This document shows, piece after piece, positions 30,601-50,744 of a stretch of DNA of 64,000 nt (positions are counted from its first letter, which is position 1; each line of letters opens with the position of its first letter). The notes beneath the pieces were generated by a model, which was not told the DNA's origin, did not search any database, and saw only the letters and a list, made by a program, of their open reading frames with translations. The position numbers and the translations under genes are program-made. This DNA is from a virus (taxonomy: Duplodnaviria; Caudoviricetes), in IMG/VR virus record IMGVR_UViG_3300028048_000063, positions 32,001 to 96,000 of that record; one strand, given 5' to 3'.

Positions 30601-33600
30601 TGATCATTCATCTTTAGATCAGGCAATATACTCTTTAATGTATTACCATCTAACCCAAAAATGCTACCTAAACCGTTTAAATACCCTGTCTGATCTTGAA
30701 ATTTTTCGGCCAATAATAACATTTCAGCAATTGGCAAAATTCCCAATCTGGTTTGAGCTTGATCGTCCCCGAATAATCCTAATCTACCGCTTTTAAAAAT
30801 CCCAGCTTTTTGTGCTTTTTTAATAATGTTCTTAACTTTTGCACCGCTATCCCATGTGTTTTTATCATTGATTGCGGCGTATAAATCTGATAACTGACTT
30901 TCGAATCCAATTGCTTCATCTGCTGACATCTTTTTTGCAGATATACTCGCTTGTTCAAATATACTTAAAAAATGCCCTAATAAGTTTGATGCCGCAGAGA
31001 ACTTACTTTCTTCTGCCGTGCCCCATGACGATGACTTATCATGCATAGCATTCATGAATCCTTGACGAACATTACTAAACATACCAACATATGCCTTACC
31101 AGTCTTAGTTAAAATAACATCTCGTGCCTGGTCTTCTTCTGATGGGAATAAGTCCTCTAATGTTTTTTTATCTGGTGTCTTAGGACGTCCTTCGTTAAAT
31201 AAACGTTCGTATGCAGTCAATCTTGCTACAGTATCTTGCATAGCTTTTACTTTATCAAGCTGACCCGCACCAACAAGTGCACCAACAAGTGTGTCTCCAT
31301 CAAAGTCTGCGTTTAATAATCTAATTAAAGATTCATCACCGCCTACTATACTATGTTTTTCTTTACCCCATAAAGGGTTAACTAACAATTTTGCAGCTAA
31401 AACGTCTTTATCACCTAATAAACTTGGATATCTATTAAGCAAAACAGCTAAACCTCTAGATAAACTTTGGTCTGTACCTTTACCAAGAGTTATGCTATCA
31501 ATAATTTTATTTTTTAGCCAGCCTTGTTGAGATCTTACTAATCGTTTGTCAAATCCTTCTTTATCCTTATTTTCTTCTACAAATTTTTGTAATCCTGTGT
31601 CCATTTGGGCTTGTACTTCTTCTTTTGTTAAACCCATAATGTCCATATAGTAAGCCATTAATTGATCTGACCATCCTTCAACTTCACCTTCTGCTGGACT
31701 AAGAAGTTGATTCATCATATGTCTGGAGACAACTATAGCATTCTTTGTATATGCCTGTAAATTTGCATTTACATCTATAGGAACGCCAGCTTGTTGTGCT
31801 TGCGCTTGTCTCTGCATTATCTTATCATAATCAATTGTTGCAAAGTCAATAACTTTTCCTTGGAAGGAATGTCCTAAAGCAACTTTAGTAGCTTGGTCAT
31901 ATGTAGAAGAATCTTTTAATGTCAATTGTTCTAATTCTTTATCACGAAGTTCTTGAACTTTTTCTGCTGCTTTTGTTGCTATTTCTTTTCTATTTGTTCC
32001 AGCTACGCCGTTATTTTTAAGGTCAGCAACAAAATTATTAATAAAACTATAAATTCCAGGACCTGTTGCACCCAAATTAACTACGTCACCAACAGCATCT
32101 TTCCTAATATCGAAATCAAATGCTGGCAACAATAAGAAGTCATTTGCTATGGCTGTCTCATTATTTGGGAACATCATATTATCCCCGGCTTTAACTGCTA
32201 CAGGAATATATTTTGCGCCAGCTTGCATTTCAGCAATCTTTATTAATTGCTCTTTTGTATATTTATTATTTCCATAAGTATCTGTCTTTTCTAGATCAGC
32301 AACTTTTTGGTCAATATAAGCTTGCCCACCAGCTCGTTCTATCAATTCTTGTCGCTCTACGTCAGATAAATTTAAGAATGCTTCTTCTTGTTTTTTTCTA
32401 ATATCGTATAATAATGTTCCTGTAATTTTGTCTAACTTTGGTAATTTAGAATCTTGCGATTGTATTTCTTCACTATATACACCGTTTTTAATATCTTGTG
32501 CTAATTTAGTTATGTTTATATTCTTTAAAAATTCATCATTAATATCGTAAATAATTCCATGTCTGGCTCTAATACTACTTTCATTTGTGTCAATATCTTC
32601 TGCCATTTCTTGGATCATATTATGATATTCAAGCATTCCATCATATCTTTTACGGGATATCTCTGTGTCTCTAGATTTATCTCTGTAATACTTTCTCAAA
32701 TCACCCATATCTACATCAGATAATTGTTCTGTGAGATTAATCAAAGACATTAAGGAATTAAATTCACGATATCCATATCTAACAGGCATACCACCTTTAG
32801 ATAAAGGCATACCATATTTTTTACCAGCGTGTCCCATTAACATATATGAAAGGAATGCGTCGTCTGCATTTTCAATTCCAATAGTATTTTGGAGACCACT
32901 GTTAATAATATTAAACCATTGTTCAGGATTTAATGATATTGGTTTATCATTTTGTGTATATTTATAAGCAGAAGTACCGTTATAGGCTGTAGAAAAAGCC
33001 TCCATAAAAGCTGGGAAATATTTTTTAAATACTCCTCTAGCTGCAATTGCTTCTGGGCCAGACTGTTCAACGACTGTACCGTTTCCTACTTTATATAATG
33101 CATCCCAAGCATCTTGTAGTGCAGTTGATCCTTTGACAGTCAATCTTCGTTTAATTTCGTTAATAAAACCAGCAGGAGTTCTGTCTGAAGCAATAAATTC
33201 ACCCTTATCATTCTTTTCGGTGAGCATACGGCCATAAGCATCCCACATAGCTCCGATTGCAGAGTTGACTACATTTTTACTTTCTACGGCTTCTTTGTCT
33301 ATAATACCAGTAATGCTTTTGTTCATGTAAAAATCATCACTATGCCCACGAACTCGTGCAAGATATGGTAGTAATTCATTTAAATTAATAGAAGTACCTG
33401 TAGCACGTACTGTTGTACCTGGGGCAACATATTTCATACTTTGAGCACTATGTTTCCCATTATATCCTTGTAAAATACCAAAACTTGTGACACCAGAATC
33501 TTTATCAATATTACCAGCCAGCCAATCATTAACAAATGCGTCAATTTGATCCTCATATCTTTTCTTTTTAGTATTATATGTTGGTCTACCCAAACCGCTA

Positions 33601-36954: not shown

Positions 36955-37950
36955 TTATGCTTCTGTCATGACGCCGTTATCCCATGCGTAAAGTTGATCA
37001 TCTGCGTAGTCAAAGAAAATCTTAACGTCTGCACCTGTACCTGCGTTAGCAATAATACATGCGTCATCTGTTCCTTCGATCCAAACAATCAATTTAACTT
37101 GAATAAGATCTTCAAATGGTGTCATAGCTGTTGCACTATCATAGAGTGGTACAATATAATACCAATCACCAGCAGCAACTGTGTGGTGTTCATCAAGAGT
37201 TGATCCAGCTGCGGATACATATGTTCCTGCTGTAACAGTCCCTGTGAAGTTGTTAGATTGTACTTTCCCTGGGTATGCACTCATACCTCTATTTGCGATT
37301 GTATCTGTAATGACAGTTTCAGATGTACCGTCATAGATAGCGAGATAGAAGTGGATAGCTGCTGCCATCTTAATTTGAGTACTTGCTGTTGGTACGATTT
37401 GAAGTGTGAGATAAGCTTGTTTTACACTGTTTGCATTAGAAGCTGTTACTGCTAAATCGAAATCGATATAGTCTTTTTGAACTTCTGCTGCCGCAACAGA
37501 ACTTGTATCTACAACGCTTGCGTCTCCGTTAGCCTTATACCAACTATTTGCTGCGATTGTTGTGCTAGCTGCTGAACCTGTGCCAGAAATGGCTGTTGTT
37601 GTATAGCTGACTGCTTTGCTTGCTCCTATTGTCATGTCAATGTTTTGGCCTGCGTTTTCTGGATCTTGAATTTGGAAATTAAGATTTGTACCCATATAAG
37701 AGTCTCCATTCCATTTTGATCCGTCCCAAACAACATCACCGTATCTATAATCAGTGTATTGTCTTGAAGCTTGAGCTGTTGTTGTGCCTAAAGCACCAAT
37801 AATCAAACCATCAGCTGCTGTGGCTTCTAAACGGATAGATTCTACAGTTGCGCTTGCTGTAGCACTAAACCATGCATAGGTTGCGGTAGTTAAAGATACT
37901 GCTAACACTAGTACCATAACTATCGTTGCGATTGTTAAACTTTTCTTCAT
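36955..37950 (-). CDS. Secreted protein with SipW-type signal peptide (TasA/CalY-like)
   Basis: MKKSLTIATIVMVLVLAVSLTTATYAWF; Ala/Thr beta-rich body; C-terminal VKLIVWIEGTD. Confidence 0.75.
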   Translation of the reverse strand: MKKSLTIATIVMVLVLAVSLTTATYAWFSATASATVESIRLEATAADGLIIGALGTTTAQASRQYTDYRYGDVVWDGSKWNGDSYMGTNLNFQIQDPENAGQNIDMTIGASKAVSYTTTAISGTGSAASTTIAANSWYKANGDASVVDTSSVAAAEVQKDYIDFDLAVTASNANSVKQAYLTLQIVPTASTQIKMAAAIHFYLAIYDGTSETVITDTIANRGMSAYPGKVQSNNFTGTVTAGTYVSAAGSTLDEHHTVAAGDWYYIVPLYDSATAMTPFEDLIQVKLIVWIEGTDDACIIANAGTGADVKIFFDYADDQLYAWDNGVMTEA

Positions 37951-38038
37951 AATTTTATCCCCTTGTTTTTTTATTATACGAGAATATTTCTATCCTCGTA
38001 TTTTTTTATTTACAAAATTGAATAAAAATTATATTTGT

Positions 38039-39238
38039 TTAATTTTTTTGATATAAATAATAATTAAAGTTTGGATCGTATTCGTTATTAAGATTGTCAA
38101 TAATATCTCTAAAATATGGATAATCTGTAGCTTTAGCTTTTTCTATGAAATATTTATTTGCTTGAGCTTCAGCAACAGTTTCTCCACAATTGTTTACAGA
38201 CTCAAAAAAGTCACCCTTATAATAATAATTATCTGCAGGACATTCTTCACAACTATGTATAATAGGACATCCTTGACATTGATAATTGTTATGTGCAGAG
38301 ATTCTATTTAAAAAATCTGTGACAAAATCCATATCTAATGTTTTATTGAAAATATTTCCAATTGGCCTATATTTATCTTGTAAACTTGATTCAGATAATC
38401 TAAAACAATTATATAAGTTACCATATACGTCTATAGCTATCTGTACACCTGTCATTCCGCAACTTGAATATTCTTTAACTGAATTATAATTATACGTAAA
38501 AGGAGTTATAATAAAAGGAATTTTATTATCAAGTATCCAATCTGCAACCTTAATTAACTCATTTTTATATTGCTCACACTCTACAGGTGTAATTTCTTGT
38601 GTAATATCTAGATTCATTCTTGCTCTTTGATATCCTAATGAATATAAATATTTACAAGAATCTAAAATATATTTGAAAGTTTCTGGCGTAAATGTCATTT
38701 TACTGTTTGGGACGTCACCTATTCTTTCTTTCTCTGCTTTTACAGCTCTATCTACATCATAAAAACTCGGCCTACCATCTTTATATCTTCTGCACTTATC
38801 ATGACATTCTTCACATCCGTCTATTGTGATTGGGGCAGAGATCTTTTCTTTATATTTATTCAAAAAATGTTGTACATCTTCGTTAAAATATGTTGTACCA
38901 TTTGTCTCTAATACTATACGGGTTTTATAAAACCATTTTACTAAACGGTGTTTAGCACACTCTCTAAACCAATAATCCGTTATAGATTCTACTAAATCCA
39001 TATACAATGTTATCTCTCCACCAATAAAATCTAGCTCCACTTCTGTATCGTTATCAATTTCATTGTTTTGTTCGAAATAAGGTCGTAAAAAACTTTCGCC
39101 TGTTGTTTTATATGATATAACTTCGTCTATGAGTTTTGTGGCCGTTGTAAGTTGTATGACTTTATTTTTTTTAAATTCATAACAATAGGTACATGCCATA
39201 TTGCATTCTTCTGTTATATGAAAAGTTACTCTAAACAT
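38039..39238 (-). CDS. Radical SAM/SPASM peptide or protein maturase (resembles the CXXX-repeat-target family)
   Basis: CNMACTYC, FIGGE, TNG, ITIDG...HD..R; SPASM CG...GNLYNC and CQGC-x5-CEEC...C. Confidence 0.9.
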   Translation of the reverse strand: MFRVTFHITEECNMACTYCYEFKKNKVIQLTTATKLIDEVISYKTTGESFLRPYFEQNNEIDNDTEVELDFIGGEITLYMDLVESITDYWFRECAKHRLVKWFYKTRIVLETNGTTYFNEDVQHFLNKYKEKISAPITIDGCEECHDKCRRYKDGRPSFYDVDRAVKAEKERIGDVPNSKMTFTPETFKYILDSCKYLYSLGYQRARMNLDITQEITPVECEQYKNELIKVADWILDNKIPFIITPFTYNYNSVKEYSSCGMTGVQIAIDVYGNLYNCFRLSESSLQDKYRPIGNIFNKTLDMDFVTDFLNRISAHNNYQCQGCPIIHSCEECPADNYYYKGDFFESVNNCGETVAEAQANKYFIEKAKATDYPYFRDIIDNLNNEYDPNFNYYLYQKN

Positions 39239-39563
39239 TTATAGTATCCTCCTCATCTTTTAAATAAACTTCTATATCACCATTAACTCGACCATGAATA
39301 TAAATAATTTTATAATCAATTAAATTATCGCCATAATAAAAGATCATAAGATTATGTATTCTGTCTAAATTATTGTTTATTCGATTGACACAATTCTCTC
39401 TTTCTGCAATCAAATCTGAAATAATATTATCTATACATAAATCCGCATATTCTTCTTGTGTTAAAGCATTTACTAAATCTGTTGTTACATCTATGTTATA
39501 AATATCTTGTTCACAAAAATCATTGATTAAATCATTTGTCATTTTGTATATAACTGTCTTCAT
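39231..39563 (-). CDS. Small acidic accessory protein of the rSAM operon
   Basis: Overlaps the rSAM start by 8 nt. ATG 39563 with a G-rich SD (track start 39569). Size and position match CXXX-repeat modification accessory proteins. Confidence 0.6.
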   Translation of the reverse strand: MKTVIYKMTNDLINDFCEQDIYNIDVTTDLVNALTQEEYADLCIDNIISDLIAERENCVNRINNNLDRIHNLMIFYYGDNLIDYKIIYIHGRVNGDIEVYLKDEEDTINV

Positions 39564-39574
39564 ACACACCCCCC

Positions 39575-40186
39575 CTATTGTCCAGACGACCTTCTACATG
39601 TAACATATATACAGGTACTGCCGCCCTTTGAAGATTTGCCACAAGTTGTTACAGCTGAACAAGTACTACAACTAGAAGAAGAACCACAAGTTGTTGTAGC
39701 ACTACATGTGCCGCAAGTACGACCAGATGCTCTATATTCTATTGTTGTTGCTCCAGATACAGTCACAGATGTTGTCGAAGTATTATTTACATATGGATAT
39801 ACATAAAAAGTATAACTACCAGCTGTGTATGAAATATAACTTGGCATCGTTAAAACGTCTCCGTAGTGGGCTGTAAATGTCCATGAAGCAGCAGCCCCTG
39901 ATGCTGTTGTGCTCCAGCTTTCAGAACTATGAGTAGAATTTGTGACTGTCAACGTGCCAAAATATTCAGGGGCGTATGTTCCTGTTAAGGAAACCGTAAT
40001 TGTATATTTCTCTTGAAGAATGGTATAGATAGTACTTGACCCAGTTCTGTAAGAAGAATCAATGGCGCCTGTGACAACAGACAGTGTACAATCATACCCT
40101 GAACTGTTAGCTGGCGTATAATTTGAAGATGCTTGGTTTAGATTAACAGCATAATCTTGACTACTATTTTTTGTATAATATGACAT
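39575..40186 (-). CDS. Ser/Thr/Tyr-rich beta protein with Cys-repeat C-terminus (putative rSAM substrate)
   Basis: C-terminus TCGTCSATTTCGSSSSCSTCSAVTTCGKSSKGGSTCIYVTCRRSSGQ (8 Cys). Start re-called to ATG 40186. Confidence 0.75.
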   Translation of the reverse strand: MSYYTKNSSQDYAVNLNQASSNYTPANSSGYDCTLSVVTGAIDSSYRTGSSTIYTILQEKYTITVSLTGTYAPEYFGTLTVTNSTHSSESWSTTASGAAASWTFTAHYGDVLTMPSYISYTAGSYTFYVYPYVNNTSTTSVTVSGATTIEYRASGRTCGTCSATTTCGSSSSCSTCSAVTTCGKSSKGGSTCIYVTCRRSSGQ

Positions 40187-40187
40187 A

Positions 40188-40592
40188 TTAATCACCAACC
40201 TTTTCTTCGAGCTTTTTAACTCTATCTTCTAAATTATCATTACGCTTAATCTCTTCTTTTAATGCACCTATTAACCAGTAAATTAATTTAGTTTCATTAA
40301 TTGAATAAAAACCATCATCATTAATATAAATCATAGACTTTAAGTATTCGTTTGGTAATATTTGTTCTAATTCTTGTGCGATTATACCTATAATTAAATT
40401 TTTATCTTTATCACACTTAAAATTAAATTCTTTAAGTATAATTTTATCTAAAATTTCTTTGAAATTAATATCCTTAACTTCTTTAATATTTTCCTTTAAT
40501 TCTTTGTCTGACGTTGAATAGAAATTAACTGCAGTAATTTTTCCTGTTGAAGTTAAATCTCCATTCACTATTGTGCTGCCTAAAATTGCCAT
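40188..40592 (-). CDS. Peptidase S74 / tail-fibre intramolecular chaperone domain protein
   Basis: TSDKELKENI, GIIAQELEQI, YSINETKLI..LIGALKE, C-terminal coiled coil. Confidence 0.85.
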   Translation of the reverse strand: MAILGSTIVNGDLTSTGKITAVNFYSTSDKELKENIKEVKDINFKEILDKIILKEFNFKCDKDKNLIIGIIAQELEQILPNEYLKSMIYINDDGFYSINETKLIYWLIGALKEEIKRNDNLEDRVKKLEEKVGD

Positions 40593-40594
40593 AG

Positions 40595-42514
40595 TTAATT
40601 CTCCTTTATTTCTCTAGTTTCTAAGAAACCATTTTTTAATAATCTATTTGTTGTGCTACTAACTCTTATATATACTAACTGCCATCCATAGCATTGTTGT
40701 CCATTGTAACTTGGTATATATCCAGTTCCCCAGTACGAACAAATACCACAACCAAACCAGTTACCATTCGATGTATTAGCAAAGCACATTTTACAATTAC
40801 TTGCATTATACCAATACATACCAGCATAACTATTTGTTGTTGTTGCAGATATTCTAGTTACATTTGTTCCAACTTTTGCAGGATTAACATCGTCCCAAGT
40901 TGCATTAAATGGATTTTTATTTTGTTTCCATCTATATCGTTCAAAGCCTCCCCCAACACTAGTTTGGTGTTGAACCATAAACTCATACCAGCCACTTTCT
41001 GGTCTATTTACGACATTGATCAAACCAAAATTACTCCATTTATCTATTGCTTGCGAGTTTAATGTCGTAAAATCACCACTGTTACTAAACACACCATTTG
41101 CTACATTATGGATACAAATAGGTAGCCAAGTGGATCCATCTTCTAATGTAACAGTTTCATACAAACTTGATGTTTTGATAGACCCTGTCTTTAAAAAACT
41201 CGTTTTTGTTAAAGTGGTATCTTCTTCTACAATATTACAGTAAATACCCCCTTTATTGTCAACACTTTCTCTTACCTGGTATAAGGCTGTTATGTCTGTC
41301 TGCGCTAAAGCAGTTGCATAAACCCTAAGATCAGATACTTGCCCGTTAAACCAGTTAGCTCCACTACAACGTATACCGAGCCTCATTTCTCTTGATCCAA
41401 AATCAGATCCAAATGATCCACTTTGCGTTCCTTTAGATACTCCGTTTATATATAATGTTGCATTTGTAGATGTCATAGTAACTACTACATGATACCATGT
41501 ACCAGTAGTGAATCCACAAGTAGAGGCACTCCATGTGTAAGAGCCTCCAGCAGAACTATAACATTGTAATCCATATGTTGTACCGCCATACATTGGTTGT
41601 GTCCCTGTCTCCCCAGAAGGAGCTCTATTATCTATAATATGGTAAGAGCCAGTGCTCCCAAATTTTAGCCAGCAAGCATATGTCATTGCAGTTGTTAGTG
41701 GAATACTTCTATATACATAATTACTACTACCATTAAATGAAGCGCTTCTTCTTCCAATGTTTGTTGTTGTGCTGTAACTAACGCTACCTGATCCATTATG
41801 TCTAAGACCACTCGAATCGGTTAGATCTTCTGTATTAAAAGTATAATGTAATATTAATCCTCTAGCAAGTTCTTTTATTTCCTTTGTAGATAATGTATGA
41901 TTATATGCTCTTAAATCATTTATATAACCATTTAATTTATAGTTATCATAAACACCATTACCGCTAGCATTGGCGAAAGACCAACACCCAATCATAAAAT
42001 AGTCTGCAGGTGTAGACATGCCAGTATATGCATGTGATCCATCTAAATTACCGTTGACATATAACCTAATAGTACTGCCATCATATGTATAGCAAAGATG
42101 GTACCAAGTGTTCGCTTGTAATAAAGTAGAACCACAATAAGTATTATATGTTCTTGAGCTCCCGTTACCAGTATTTACACTCAAATAGCCAGTAGTAGAA
42201 GACACGTATTTAATTGTCATCCCCATACCTACATTACTTGGGTATCTGTGCTGCCCTGCAATAGATCCACCAAGAGAACTATCACTGCTCAAACTACTGA
42301 ACTTAACCCACGCACATATAGATTGATTTTGACCTAAAGTGACTGTATTGTTAGAAACATATCCACCACTAGAATAAGATGTGTTGCCATAACAACATAC
42401 TGTTACCTTACCCGCATTGGTTAAACTAGAACCACTTAAACTAGTAAAATTTAAATTTGAAGTTCCATAATTAATTATACTATTATTCAAGGGAAGCCAT
42501 ATTACTAAACTCAT
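40595..42514 (-). CDS. LamG/concanavalin-A-like domain virion protein (two LamG domains plus C-terminal domain)
   Basis: WYHLCYTYDGSTIRLYVNG...NGYINDLRAYNHTLS and WYHVVVT...LYING...FNGQVSDLRVYATAL. ATG 42514 with GGAGG. Confidence 0.88.
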   Translation of the reverse strand: MSLVIWLPLNNSIINYGTSNLNFTSLSGSSLTNAGKVTVCCYGNTSYSSGGYVSNNTVTLGQNQSICAWVKFSSLSSDSSLGGSIAGQHRYPSNVGMGMTIKYVSSTTGYLSVNTGNGSSRTYNTYCGSTLLQANTWYHLCYTYDGSTIRLYVNGNLDGSHAYTGMSTPADYFMIGCWSFANASGNGVYDNYKLNGYINDLRAYNHTLSTKEIKELARGLILHYTFNTEDLTDSSGLRHNGSGSVSYSTTTNIGRRSASFNGSSNYVYRSIPLTTAMTYACWLKFGSTGSYHIIDNRAPSGETGTQPMYGGTTYGLQCYSSAGGSYTWSASTCGFTTGTWYHVVVTMTSTNATLYINGVSKGTQSGSFGSDFGSREMRLGIRCSGANWFNGQVSDLRVYATALAQTDITALYQVRESVDNKGGIYCNIVEEDTTLTKTSFLKTGSIKTSSLYETVTLEDGSTWLPICIHNVANGVFSNSGDFTTLNSQAIDKWSNFGLINVVNRPESGWYEFMVQHQTSVGGGFERYRWKQNKNPFNATWDDVNPAKVGTNVTRISATTTNSYAGMYWYNASNCKMCFANTSNGNWFGCGICSYWGTGYIPSYNGQQCYGWQLVYIRVSSTTNRLLKNGFLETREIKEN

Positions 42515-42524
42515 ATATACCTCC

Positions 42525-44111
42525 TTAGAATACAAAATCTATAGACTCAGTTGATGTATTATATTGCATTGTAGCTTTAGCTGTCCCCGAAGATGTAATT
42601 CTATACTTATCACTATCTAATTGTCCAGCTGCGCTTGATAAAACAACATAATTCGCACTTCTACCACCGGACGTACTAGAGTTTAAAGTAATTTTTCTAC
42701 TGCCACTTGTTGTAATGGCACTAGTACTATCTATCGATAACCCTGTTCCAGCAGTTGTGATAGTTACACTTGTAACAGTACCATTAGCATAATTATTTGG
42801 GTTACTTGCTAAATAATATTGACTATGAGTATGGTTCTTAGAAACAGCAACTCCATCAGTATCTGTTGCGCCATTCATGTCTCCAGTAGCTAGCTTAACA
42901 TGGCCGTAGTTAGCGGTTGTGCCAGCACCATAGGTGGTAGCAGAAGAAGCGTGTGAAGTAGGTGTTCTGCTATTACTTAATCTACTATCATTACCAACGC
43001 AAACTGAGGTCGCACTCGTTCCTGTAGGTACATATAAATCATTAACTCCTGTACCTGTACCTATTTTTAAACCAGAACTATAGCTTGGTGTGTGATAATA
43101 GTTTGTATCAACCCCTCCTGCTAATACTTCTGTCATAGTTTTGGTAGTGGTTCCATCAGTTAAACCTGCTGCTCGTAAATTACCAGCTAAATATTCATTT
43201 CCAGACCAATCTAATGTTCTTGCATTTGAACGAGCAGATGAAGTTCCATTACCAACTATTTCTACATAAGTATCAGCTGTATCTTCTATATTATACTTAC
43301 CACCTACATGCTGATATTGTGAAGATGCAACAGTGCTAAAACCTTCGGCATGAGAACCTTGGCCTGAAGCAATAGTACCAGAACCTTCAGCATGAGAATT
43401 AGGACCTGACGCGAAAGTATTATACCCTTCGGCGTGTGCTCCGCCATTTGATGCTATTGTACGATCACCTTCGGCGTGAGATAATCCATAGGCTGCGCCA
43501 TTACATATATATACTGTGGCACTTGATAGCGCAGAGCTAGACAGGGTTGATGACACAGTTATTGTAGTACCCGTACCAGAAACAGTGTTAACTCTTGCAA
43601 CTTTTTTATTTGTGCCACTCCCATATGATAATATCGTGCCAACTTTTGGTGCAACACCAGAAGCAATAGTATAGCTTGTAGTATTTGCATCTCCAGTGAG
43701 TTTAAATGTAGAACTAGTAGATTTACCATATCCTTCTGCATGGCCACCATCAAGAGCAGTTGTCCCCGTACCTTCAGCATGTGAGTAATTACCAAAAGCT
43801 CCTGTAATATATCCTTCTGCTAAAGAATAACTTCCGGCAGCAGTATTACTACTACCTAATGTTGTACTGTAACTACCAACAGTAGTCATCATAGCTCTAT
43901 TCATACTTAAACTACCAGTACCGATCGCATCAGCTTTATTCATTTTTGTGGATATATCTGGAATTTGGCTTGTTAAAGCAATCGTCGAATCTGCGGTTAA
44001 TGTAGGCAAAACCGCTTCATATCCGTTATTTTGCAATCTTTCTGGAATAATTTCGTAATCTGTTACTCCATCTGGATTTATTTTTTTAATTTTATTTGTA
44101 GGTAAAGCCAT
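42525..44111 (-). CDS. Tail fibre with YadA/Hep-Hag-like (SHAEG) head repeats
   Basis: Repeated xSHAEGxxTxA; RLSNSRTPTSHAS...YGHVKL fibre motif. Confidence 0.82.
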   Translation of the reverse strand: MALPTNKIKKINPDGVTDYEIIPERLQNNGYEAVLPTLTADSTIALTSQIPDISTKMNKADAIGTGSLSMNRAMMTTVGSYSTTLGSSNTAAGSYSLAEGYITGAFGNYSHAEGTGTTALDGGHAEGYGKSTSSTFKLTGDANTTSYTIASGVAPKVGTILSYGSGTNKKVARVNTVSGTGTTITVSSTLSSSALSSATVYICNGAAYGLSHAEGDRTIASNGGAHAEGYNTFASGPNSHAEGSGTIASGQGSHAEGFSTVASSQYQHVGGKYNIEDTADTYVEIVGNGTSSARSNARTLDWSGNEYLAGNLRAAGLTDGTTTKTMTEVLAGGVDTNYYHTPSYSSGLKIGTGTGVNDLYVPTGTSATSVCVGNDSRLSNSRTPTSHASSATTYGAGTTANYGHVKLATGDMNGATDTDGVAVSKNHTHSQYYLASNPNNYANGTVTSVTITTAGTGLSIDSTSAITTSGSRKITLNSSTSGGRSANYVVLSSAAGQLDSDKYRITSSGTAKATMQYNTSTESIDFVF

Positions 44112-49880: not shown

Positions 49881-50744
49881 TTATAAAGTTATATCGCCAT
49901 CACTGCAATGAATTGTTGTAAGCACACTTGGGTCACACCAGTCAGTGCCAAAAGTAATATTTCCCCATTCAGCCATTGTTCCTGTGTAGGTTAAACTTGA
50001 TAAATTTGAACAGCCAGAGAATGCATTCCAGCCAATAGATGTTACACTGTTTGGTATACGTACATATGACAAATAGCTACAACTATCAAAACTCCAGTCC
50101 TCTATTCCTGTTATATTATCTGGGAGCACGATAGTATCCAAAGCGCTACAGGCTTGAAACATACTACTACTAATTTTAGGTATTGTACACTTATCCATGT
50201 ATACGTTTGTTAAATTGGTACATCCTTGAAATATATGAGTACCAAATTGCCCATTTTGAATTACACAGGCTCCAAAGTCAACACTTTGTAAATTAGGACA
50301 ATTTTGAAAAGCGTATGATCCTATACTTTCAATACTATCTGGAATAGTAATACTAGTAAAATTAGTTCTGTTTTTAGCAGCTGCCATTTCAATTCTACGA
50401 CATTCACTACGTATTGTTTCTGTATTTAAATTTAATAAAGTATAATAACTATTTCCTTCTGCAGGCATATACATATTTACATTGCCCCAGCTTCCAACTA
50501 AATTTGGGGCTACATTAACAGAAACCTCGCTATATCCAGCACAAGAATCGCTGCTGGCATAATATGTCCCATTCTCTGATATAGATTTAGTATAAATTGG
50601 TACATTTACATATACGGAATTATATCCATCATATCCGCTACCTTCTGGTGTATATGTGTGTTCATTTTCTGTGGCGTTTAAATCTGTTAATTTGGCCCCG
50701 CCACCTGTTACAATCATAGGATTTTTAACTAATACATTACTCAT
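49881..50744 (-). CDS. Fibre-cluster protein with BspA-type leucine-rich repeats
   Basis: N-terminal NGTY...GYSEVSVNV fibre repeats; IPDSIESIGSYAFQNC and IPNSVTSIGWNAFSGCSNL. Confidence 0.85.
   Translation of the reverse strand: MSNVLVKNPMIVTGGGAKLTDLNATENEHTYTPEGSGYDGYNSVYVNVPIYTKSISENGTYYASSDSCAGYSEVSVNVAPNLVGSWGNVNMYMPAEGNSYYTLLNLNTETIRSECRRIEMAAAKNRTNFTSITIPDSIESIGSYAFQNCPNLQSVDFGACVIQNGQFGTHIFQGCTNLTNVYMDKCTIPKISSSMFQACSALDTIVLPDNITGIEDWSFDSCSYLSYVRIPNSVTSIGWNAFSGCSNLSSLTYTGTMAEWGNITFGTDWCDPSVLTTIHCSDGDITL

Follow-up and report, generated by a model that had tools for sequence, protein, structure and literature searches.

In the CXXX-repeat system, which is common in gut phage contigs, a target (TIGR04114/TIGR04117), a helper of about 100 amino acids (aa; the associated protein TIGR04116) and a radical S-adenosylmethionine (rSAM) maturase (TIGR04115) are encoded in that order with coupled starts, and the phage targets are large proteins, some of them with ALK/LTK glycine-rich or discoidin domains. 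The same order and coupling are found in the Caudoviricetes record IMGVR_UViG_3300028048_000063, of which we analysed a stretch of 64,000 nucleotides (positions 32,001 to 96,000 of the record, hereafter the window). A 203-aa target with a Cys-rich C-terminal tail, a 110-aa helper and a 399-aa radical SAM/SPASM enzyme stand there with the late tail-fibre genes, and we consider it on balance probable that this three-part module staples a fibre-appended protein in its tail through enzymatically formed thioethers. The target design differs from that of the CXXX-repeat system, whose targets carry long (CXXX)n arrays with a Cys at every fourth residue, whereas here the Cys are gathered in a short C-terminal tail. 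A literature search found no paper describing CXXX systems or SPASM enzymes in phage tail modules. New elements here are a separate sister clade whose target is designed differently, the exchange of the genes as a cassette, and a natural minimal form with two Cys and no helper.

Several other systems are informative for comparison. CteB, which acts on SCIFF (thermocellin), is a ranthisynthase that links Cys to the C-gamma of Thr by a thioether, and it is the closest solved structure to the enzyme of this locus. The core of SCIFF is a Ser/Thr/Cys-rich C-terminal stretch of about 45 residues, as is the tail here. However, CteB has a fused N-terminal recognition element (RRE) for peptides that are made by the ribosome and modified after translation (RiPPs) and a peptide substrate of about 50 aa that bears a leader, whereas the enzyme here has no RRE. 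PapB, the maturase of the ranthipeptide freyrasin and the second-best family for our enzyme, makes Cys-X3-Asp thioethers; repeated small rings are made on a repeat substrate (PMC9413430, PMC12373016), and varied ring contexts are tolerated by such enzymes (PMC12373016). The substrate at our locus, in contrast, would be a folded protein encoded among phage tail genes. Proteins whose N-terminal part is conserved and whose Cys lie at the C-terminus receive thioethers from the SPASM enzymes QhpD (on QhpC) and CrpC (on CrpA; 2026) (PMC13692751), both of which belong to other families, are cellular and not viral, and use an RRE. The substrate motif of anSME is C/S-x-P/A-x-R, whereas the tail here reads C-S-A-x-T and lacks the Arg. 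RiPPs in the strict sense have a short precursor, a cleaved leader and a protease and/or exporter; neither a short Cys-rich ORF nor a protease or exporter is found with the cassette, and the presumed substrates in its clade range from 186 to more than 1,315 aa. Covalent bonds stabilise an exposed fibre in Gram-positive pilins (isopeptide or ester bonds) and an exposed shell in HK97 (capsid chainmail). Those bonds are autocatalytic, whereas at this locus the gene of the presumed substrate is accompanied by that of a dedicated oxygen-sensitive enzyme. The target contains a predicted sandwich domain that resembles pilin CnaB domains, and we propose that the logic of covalent stabilisation is likewise shared.

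The cassette lies on the minus strand, which carries nearly all genes of the window, a gene-dense stretch of about 33% G+C in a phage contig of 150,079 bp. The target gene (39575-40186, with its real start at the ATG at 40186) is followed by the helper gene (39231-39563, ATG at 39563, with a GGGGGG Shine-Dalgarno sequence in front) and by the enzyme gene (38039-39238). An earlier note on this DNA had described four coupled genes closing the fibre operon, a 203-aa protein with two CxTCSAxTTCG repeats and a TCIYVTC end with eight Cys, seven of them after Thr, and a SPASM rSAM enzyme without a visible exporter or short precursor peptide. All of this was borne out: the four open reading frames (ORFs) are present on the minus strand, with a 1-nucleotide spacer between the S74 chaperone ORF and the target, 11 nucleotides between target and helper and an 8-nucleotide overlap of helper and enzyme; the description of the tail is exact; no exporter or peptidase/transporter family occurs among the neighbours of the cassette; and no short Cys-rich ORF of at least 20 aa fits within it.

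Judged by its motifs, the enzyme is a complete rSAM enzyme with a twitch-free SPASM signature. It harbors the cluster motif CX3CX2C (C12/C16/C19), preceded by only 11 residues, a GGE motif (G73-G74-E75) and seven SPASM Cys (C260/278/321/324/330/333/351), all of them invariant in 51 relatives from both clades described below, and it scores 31.3 bits with the SPASM model TIGR04085 (cutoff 27). The families that it matches best are the CXXX-repeat maturases (TIGR04115, 191.9 bits over the full length, cutoff 350), PapB (NF047865, 116 bits over the full length, cutoff 340), QhpD (TIGR03906, 76 bits, cutoff 453) and the SCIFF maturase (TIGR03974, 57 bits, cutoff 425); anSME (TIGR03942, 52.5 bits, cutoff 349) and the CrpC family (TIGR04463, 42 bits) score lower. 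Among solved structures the closest is CteB (5WGG/5WHY, E=1e-32), aligned over CteB residues 98-437 only, and the second-best is anSME (E=2e-15). Because the alignment starts at residue 98, past the N-terminal RRE of CteB (1-97), the enzyme is taken to lack an RRE.

Phylogenetically, the enzyme stands in a monophyletic clade next to the CXXX-repeat maturases, as their sister, and is not a member of that family by the NCBIfam cutoff. In a maximum-likelihood tree, it forms with 19 relatives a single clade on a long stem, with a support of 100 in the Shimodaira-Hasegawa-like approximate likelihood ratio test (SH-aLRT), and this clade pairs with the canonical CXXX maturases as its sister group (SH-aLRT 91). 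On TIGR04115, enzymes of the window clade score 167-225 bits, against 341-521 bits for canonical phage enzymes located beside true (CXXX)n proteins, and they lack an N-terminal extension of about 30 aa present in the latter. The assignment to the CXXX-repeat families, for which the earlier note had suggested a comparison of hidden Markov models (HMMs), was not obtained for any of the three components: the enzyme stays below the TIGR04115 cutoff, TIGR04116 does not match the helper, and TIGR04114 and TIGR04117 give no match at E up to 1-10 on the targets of the window and of the related lineages L002, L006 and L172, whereas 5/6 canonical controls match. The clade is rare, with about 17 clusters in a collection of 5.8 billion proteins and 3 of the 80 loci returned by an alignment-based query of viral contigs; a megablast search of the region against 50,697 phage records gave no match. 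Most enzymes of the window clade also carry an extra C-x2-C-H-x2-C motif (C142, C145 and C149; residues 142-149, encoded at 38793-38816), which may be an additional metal site; the canonical CXXX maturases have Asn and Leu at its first two positions.

The target consists of three parts. An N-terminal segment of about 57 residues (40016..40186) is conserved and stays with the fibre genes; it is followed by a predicted beta-sandwich domain (residues 58-160 approximately, 39707..40015) and by the Cys-rich tail (residues 161-203, 39578..39706), the presumed substrate, which is taken to be disordered. In the AlphaFold2 model, the predicted local distance difference test (pLDDT) is below 50 for the N-terminal segment and 76-94, in blocks of 10 residues, for the sandwich, whereas neither the tail nor the flanks of the sandwich are confidently modelled. 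The tail comprises two C-x2-C-S-A-x3-C-G units and a terminal C-x4-C-RRSSGQ, reading C-G-T-C-S-A-T-T-T-C-G, then C-S-T-C-S-A-V-T-T-C-G, then T-C-I-Y-V-T-C. Eight Cys thus lie within 41 residues, at positions 161-200, with a spacing of 2,5,5,2,5,9,4, and the ninth Cys of the target is residue 33. This density lies far above what chance would give. In the coding-strand frames Cys accounts for 1.25% of residues, and no coding segment of the window other than the tail reaches 6 Cys per 45 aa; in the whole 150,079-bp genome, too, the tail is the sole Cys-dense coding segment. The genome has one SPASM enzyme and one candidate substrate. Other Cys-dense frames of the genome were considered as extra substrates and rejected as antisense or non-coding junk. 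Outside the window, at C1:102684-104282, the genome contains an acidic 533-aa frame with repeated E-C-G-H-C-E-E and C-P-D-C, a different kind of Cys motif.

Among homologues of the tail, a Thr before the Cys is found at only 3/8 positions in lineages L168 and L170, so this feature is not conserved. Closer relatives share instead the C-x2-C-[SN]-[AS]-x3-C unit, in 1-3 copies, and the terminal C-x3-4-C-[RAS][RK], with basic residues and Gly after the last Cys. The sandwich domain occurs repeatedly in larger homologues (464-921 aa). Its predicted fold gives a VIA Z score of 8.2 to 5u6f and of 7-8 to Gram-positive pilins, together with weak matches to tail-collar-fibre domains in BFVD, and the likeness to CnaB/pilin-type adhesin domains is only suggestive. 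The target matches no PDB sequence and has no signal peptide. Its family is small, with 6 matches among 1.84 billion representatives, of which 5 are relatives, the sixth being a spurious match to immunoglobulin repeats. Four of the 5 relatives were fetched or match fetched loci, and each adjoins an enzyme of the clade. In the nucleotide search, the large targets of L171 and L002 gave no matches as queries.

The pairing of the enzyme with a Cys-bearing C-terminus holds in all 13 lineages of the clade that were examined (the window, L168, L170, L001, L002, L004, L006, L007, L166, L167, L171, L172 and L173): in each, a Cys-bearing stretch closes the gene that directly precedes the enzyme, or its helper. 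These upstream proteins measure from 186 to more than 1,315 aa and their tails contain from 2 Cys (L166 and L167) to 13 (L001). The tails of L166 and L167 have a single C-x4-C with the enzyme still directly adjacent, and the pair is kept in two lineages with recoded genetic codes, L167 (TAG=Q) and L171 (TGA=W). The earlier note had named homologous enzymes without Cys-rich neighbours as an argument against its proposal; these were looked for and none occurs among the 13 lineages, so its proposal is not contradicted on this point. In the sister clade, the enzyme is accompanied by an adjacent Cys-dense protein at all 77 canonical loci on viral contigs (77/77); the median length of these proteins is 359 aa. 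One such CXXX-repeat phage protein (L073:2624-5107, 827 aa) has a strong ALK/LTK glycine-rich domain (PF12810, E=2e-96), and another (L042) resembles tail proteins and bears a discoidin-like domain.

The gene neighbourhood, which the earlier note had suggested examining, shows the cassette together with tail genes. It lies in the tail module, and in 6 lineages a fibre gene ending in an S74 domain is directly upstream of the target. In the window this position is taken by a stand-alone S74 intramolecular-chaperone ORF of 134 aa (40188-40592; Pfam PF13884, E=6e-11, and many C-termini of PHROG tail fibres), the last of the fibre genes, which has its own AAGGAG Shine-Dalgarno sequence 8 nucleotides 5' of its ATG and is preceded by an ORF that stops with TAA. 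It provides context only and lies outside the swapped block described below. In L001 a single fibre of 1,267 aa matches, at its N-terminus, the N-terminus of the 528-aa ORF of the window and, at its C-terminus, the stand-alone S74 ORF, while in L002 the Cys-tailed target of 920 aa itself fills the fibre slot. The N-terminus of the target is also found in L001, L170, L166 and L167, where an S74 fibre is upstream, and these 57 residues or so are probably the part that docks on the fibre.

Comparison with the sister phage L168, which has the same gene order, indicates that the genes of the cassette move together. Amino-acid identity in the flanks is 97% for a 151-aa protein, 99% for a 357-aa protein, 89% for the 528-aa fibre, 98% for the LamG protein and 98.5% for the S74 chaperone on one side, and 95% for a 331-aa protein, 100% for a 147-aa protein and 91% for an 88-aa protein on the other. 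The target, helper and enzyme between them are only 63.5%, 64.5% and 68.3% identical. DNA identity is 93% from 44200 to 39993, then collapses, and is again 92% from 37975, which places the breakpoints at about 39993, some 64 codons into the target gene, and at about 38000, just past the enzyme stop; accordingly, 55/57 of the first residues of the target are identical. The contrast between flanks at 89-100% and a cassette at 64-68%, together with the position of the breakpoints, shows that the distal part of the target, the helper and the enzyme move as one cassette. On this comparison, the sandwich domain, Cys tail, helper and enzyme are replaced together between phages. A conserved attachment end joined to an exchangeable distal end corresponds to the pattern of receptor-binding proteins, and the alignments further show the putative maturation genes travelling with the distal end.

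The helper is present in 9/13 lineages. It has no match in Pfam, NCBIfam or PHROG, a word-based search retrieved only 4 close relatives, and the ESM Atlas gave no usable match. Its AlphaFold2 model (pLDDT 90) starts with one beta strand, continues with a helical hairpin and ends in a beta hairpin, with sheet and helices ordered unlike the winged helix of an RRE. Foldseek, VIA and a PDB sequence search found background helical-hairpin matches only, none significant, and its identification as an RRE was dropped. With the TIGR04116 helper it shares size, position and start-stop coupling, although homology is not demonstrable. It has no HMM match to that family, but merely 1/17 canonical phage helpers matches TIGR04116 either; aligned to those by hhalign it is colinear over 99 columns, end to end, but weakly (probability 5%, E 0.007). 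A presenting or chaperone role is plausible, and the helper is not essential to the system.

Since the genes of target, helper and enzyme are passed on and exchanged as a unit, the phage probably cross-links a tail-fibre-associated protein enzymatically. With NrdD and NrdG, the phage encodes an anaerobic ribonucleotide reductase pair, and the rSAM enzyme would accordingly act in an anaerobic cytoplasm. There, it would cleave SAM, take a hydrogen atom from a residue of the tail and bond a Cys sulfur to the resulting carbon. By analogy with PapB, CteB, QhpD and CrpC, a thioether is the most likely chemistry, and the resulting thioether rings would most likely be ranthionines or sactionines. Covalent bonds that withstand both reduction and proteases would then hold the tail tip, and they would be made where disulfides cannot form. 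Standing in for the missing RRE, the helper would probably present the tail to the enzyme, and the first 57 residues, which are conserved, would probably dock the target on the fibre. The distal part, helper and enzyme are exchanged as one cassette, like host-range modules. Of the earlier note's central idea, RiPP chemistry applied to a fibre protein, the family features of the enzyme, the pairing with a Cys tail, the fibre context and the joint exchange speak in favour, while membership in the CXXX-repeat system did not stand.

Several observations weigh against stapling of a fibre protein. Residues 161-203 include neither Asp nor Glu, so an acceptor of the PapB or QhpD type is missing, and the enzyme misses every curated maturase-family cutoff. 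The two-Cys tails of L166 and L167 imply that extensive stapling is not universal; the helper is absent from L166, L167, L171 and L173 (4/13), and an RRE fold is not recognisable in it. For the sandwich, the fold matches are no better than unrelated models reach, and the CxxC...CxxC spacing of the window tail is also compatible with a zinc knuckle. Finally, tblastn of the enzyme in phage records found only three unannotated faecal phage contigs, and no cultured phage with the cassette.

The same enzyme and substrate might undergo another chemistry, such as conversion of Cys to formylglycine as by anSME, epimerisation, methylation or C-C or C-O links. SPASM enzymes perform all these reactions, the CXXX family and its sister clade are uncharacterised, anSME is the second-best solved match (E=2e-15), and the conserved C-S-A recalls the sulfatase motif C-x-[PA]-x-R. 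We regard this as unlikely, however, as the top matches (TIGR04115 relatives, PapB, QhpD and CteB) are all thioether formers and stand well above anSME, the Arg of the sulfatase motif is missing, and multiple Cys are the sole constant feature of the substrates. It appears improbable to a similar degree that the modified protein is absent from the virion and is a late non-structural product, for instance a fibre-assembly factor or a stapled protein or peptide with RiPP-like activity, freed at lysis for anti-competitor or signalling purposes. RiPP maturases normally yield secreted bioactive peptides, and genes right after fibre genes often encode assembly chaperones, but the target has no signal peptide and neither protease nor exporter is nearby. 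Moreover, targets of up to more than 1,315 aa with repeated adhesin-like sandwiches, the L002 target in the fibre slot, and an N-terminus that varies along with the fibre genes beside a swapped distal part, as in receptor-binding proteins, are difficult to fit with a released product. That the tail is a Zn or Fe-S knuckle folding unmodified while the enzyme acts elsewhere is very doubtful: the C161-x2-C164 ... C176-x2-C179 spacing resembles a zinc ribbon, but the CxxC pairs are not conserved in the clade and the genome has no other Cys-rich candidate, and this explanation is hard to reconcile with the single C-x4-C beside the enzyme in L166 and L167 and with the joint exchange of target, helper and enzyme.

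Thioether stapling of a fibre-associated protein may be extended to a more general proposal, which we advance tentatively: phages of anaerobes would staple the distal tip of a tail-fibre-associated adhesin by a dedicated rSAM enzyme, with tip, helper and enzyme forming a host-range cassette. If true, this would be the first known virion protein cross-linked by an enzyme and not autocatalytically, and a case of structural, not antibiotic, RiPP chemistry. RiPP-type radical chemistry would gain a second role beyond secreted peptides, in the making of virus-particle parts within an anaerobic, reducing cell. An enzymatic step would be added to the maturation of phage tail fibres, which would explain the frequent SPASM enzymes of gut phages, and the clade would offer a natural substrate series for enzymology, from a helper-free tail with 2 Cys to tails with 13 Cys and a helper. 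The cassette exchange also suggests co-evolution of enzyme and tip, which is relevant to host-range prediction and to the engineering of stable receptor-binding proteins.

Its surroundings assign the cassette to the tail module of a phage that infects an anaerobe. The fibre genes upstream (40595..44111, minus strand), with matches to PHROG families of virion structural or tail proteins, encode a fibre-like protein of 528 aa (42525-44111) and a protein of 646 aa with two LamG domains (40595-42535; PF13385, E=3e-41). Together with the 134-aa S74 ORF, they divide over three ORFs (40188-44111) what in L001 is one fibre of 1,267 aa whose N- and C-termini are the same. The split is kept in L168 at 98% identity; the stand-alone S74 ORF has about 27 residues ahead of its SDKELKENI-type motif, and an S74 chaperone acting in trans would be unusual.

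Downstream of the cassette are small genes and then a tape-measure protein of 4,512 aa. An 11-bp hairpin (37976-38001, minus strand; RNA fold -18.3 kcal/mol, z = -5.9) closes the operon and adjoins the downstream breakpoint of the swapped block; it has A-runs and is followed by no U-tract, so that it is at most a putative terminator. Promoter and terminator scans gave chance levels only. Just past the cassette, a 331-aa protein without family match (36955-37950) begins with an N-terminal signal containing T-Y-A-W-F-S-A, which we take to resemble the signal peptides of the SipW/TasA class. It is kept in L168, L169 and the P0002 contig and not in other lineages; as it is unconserved there and lies outside the swapped block, it was rejected as a part of the system. 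Upstream of the cassette are further fibre-like proteins, BspA-type leucine-rich repeat (LRR) proteins and the genes of NrdD and NrdG. One of the BspA-type LRR proteins (PF13306, E=2e-32) lies at 49881-50744 in the tail module, and LRR proteins also flank the cassettes of L002 and L004.

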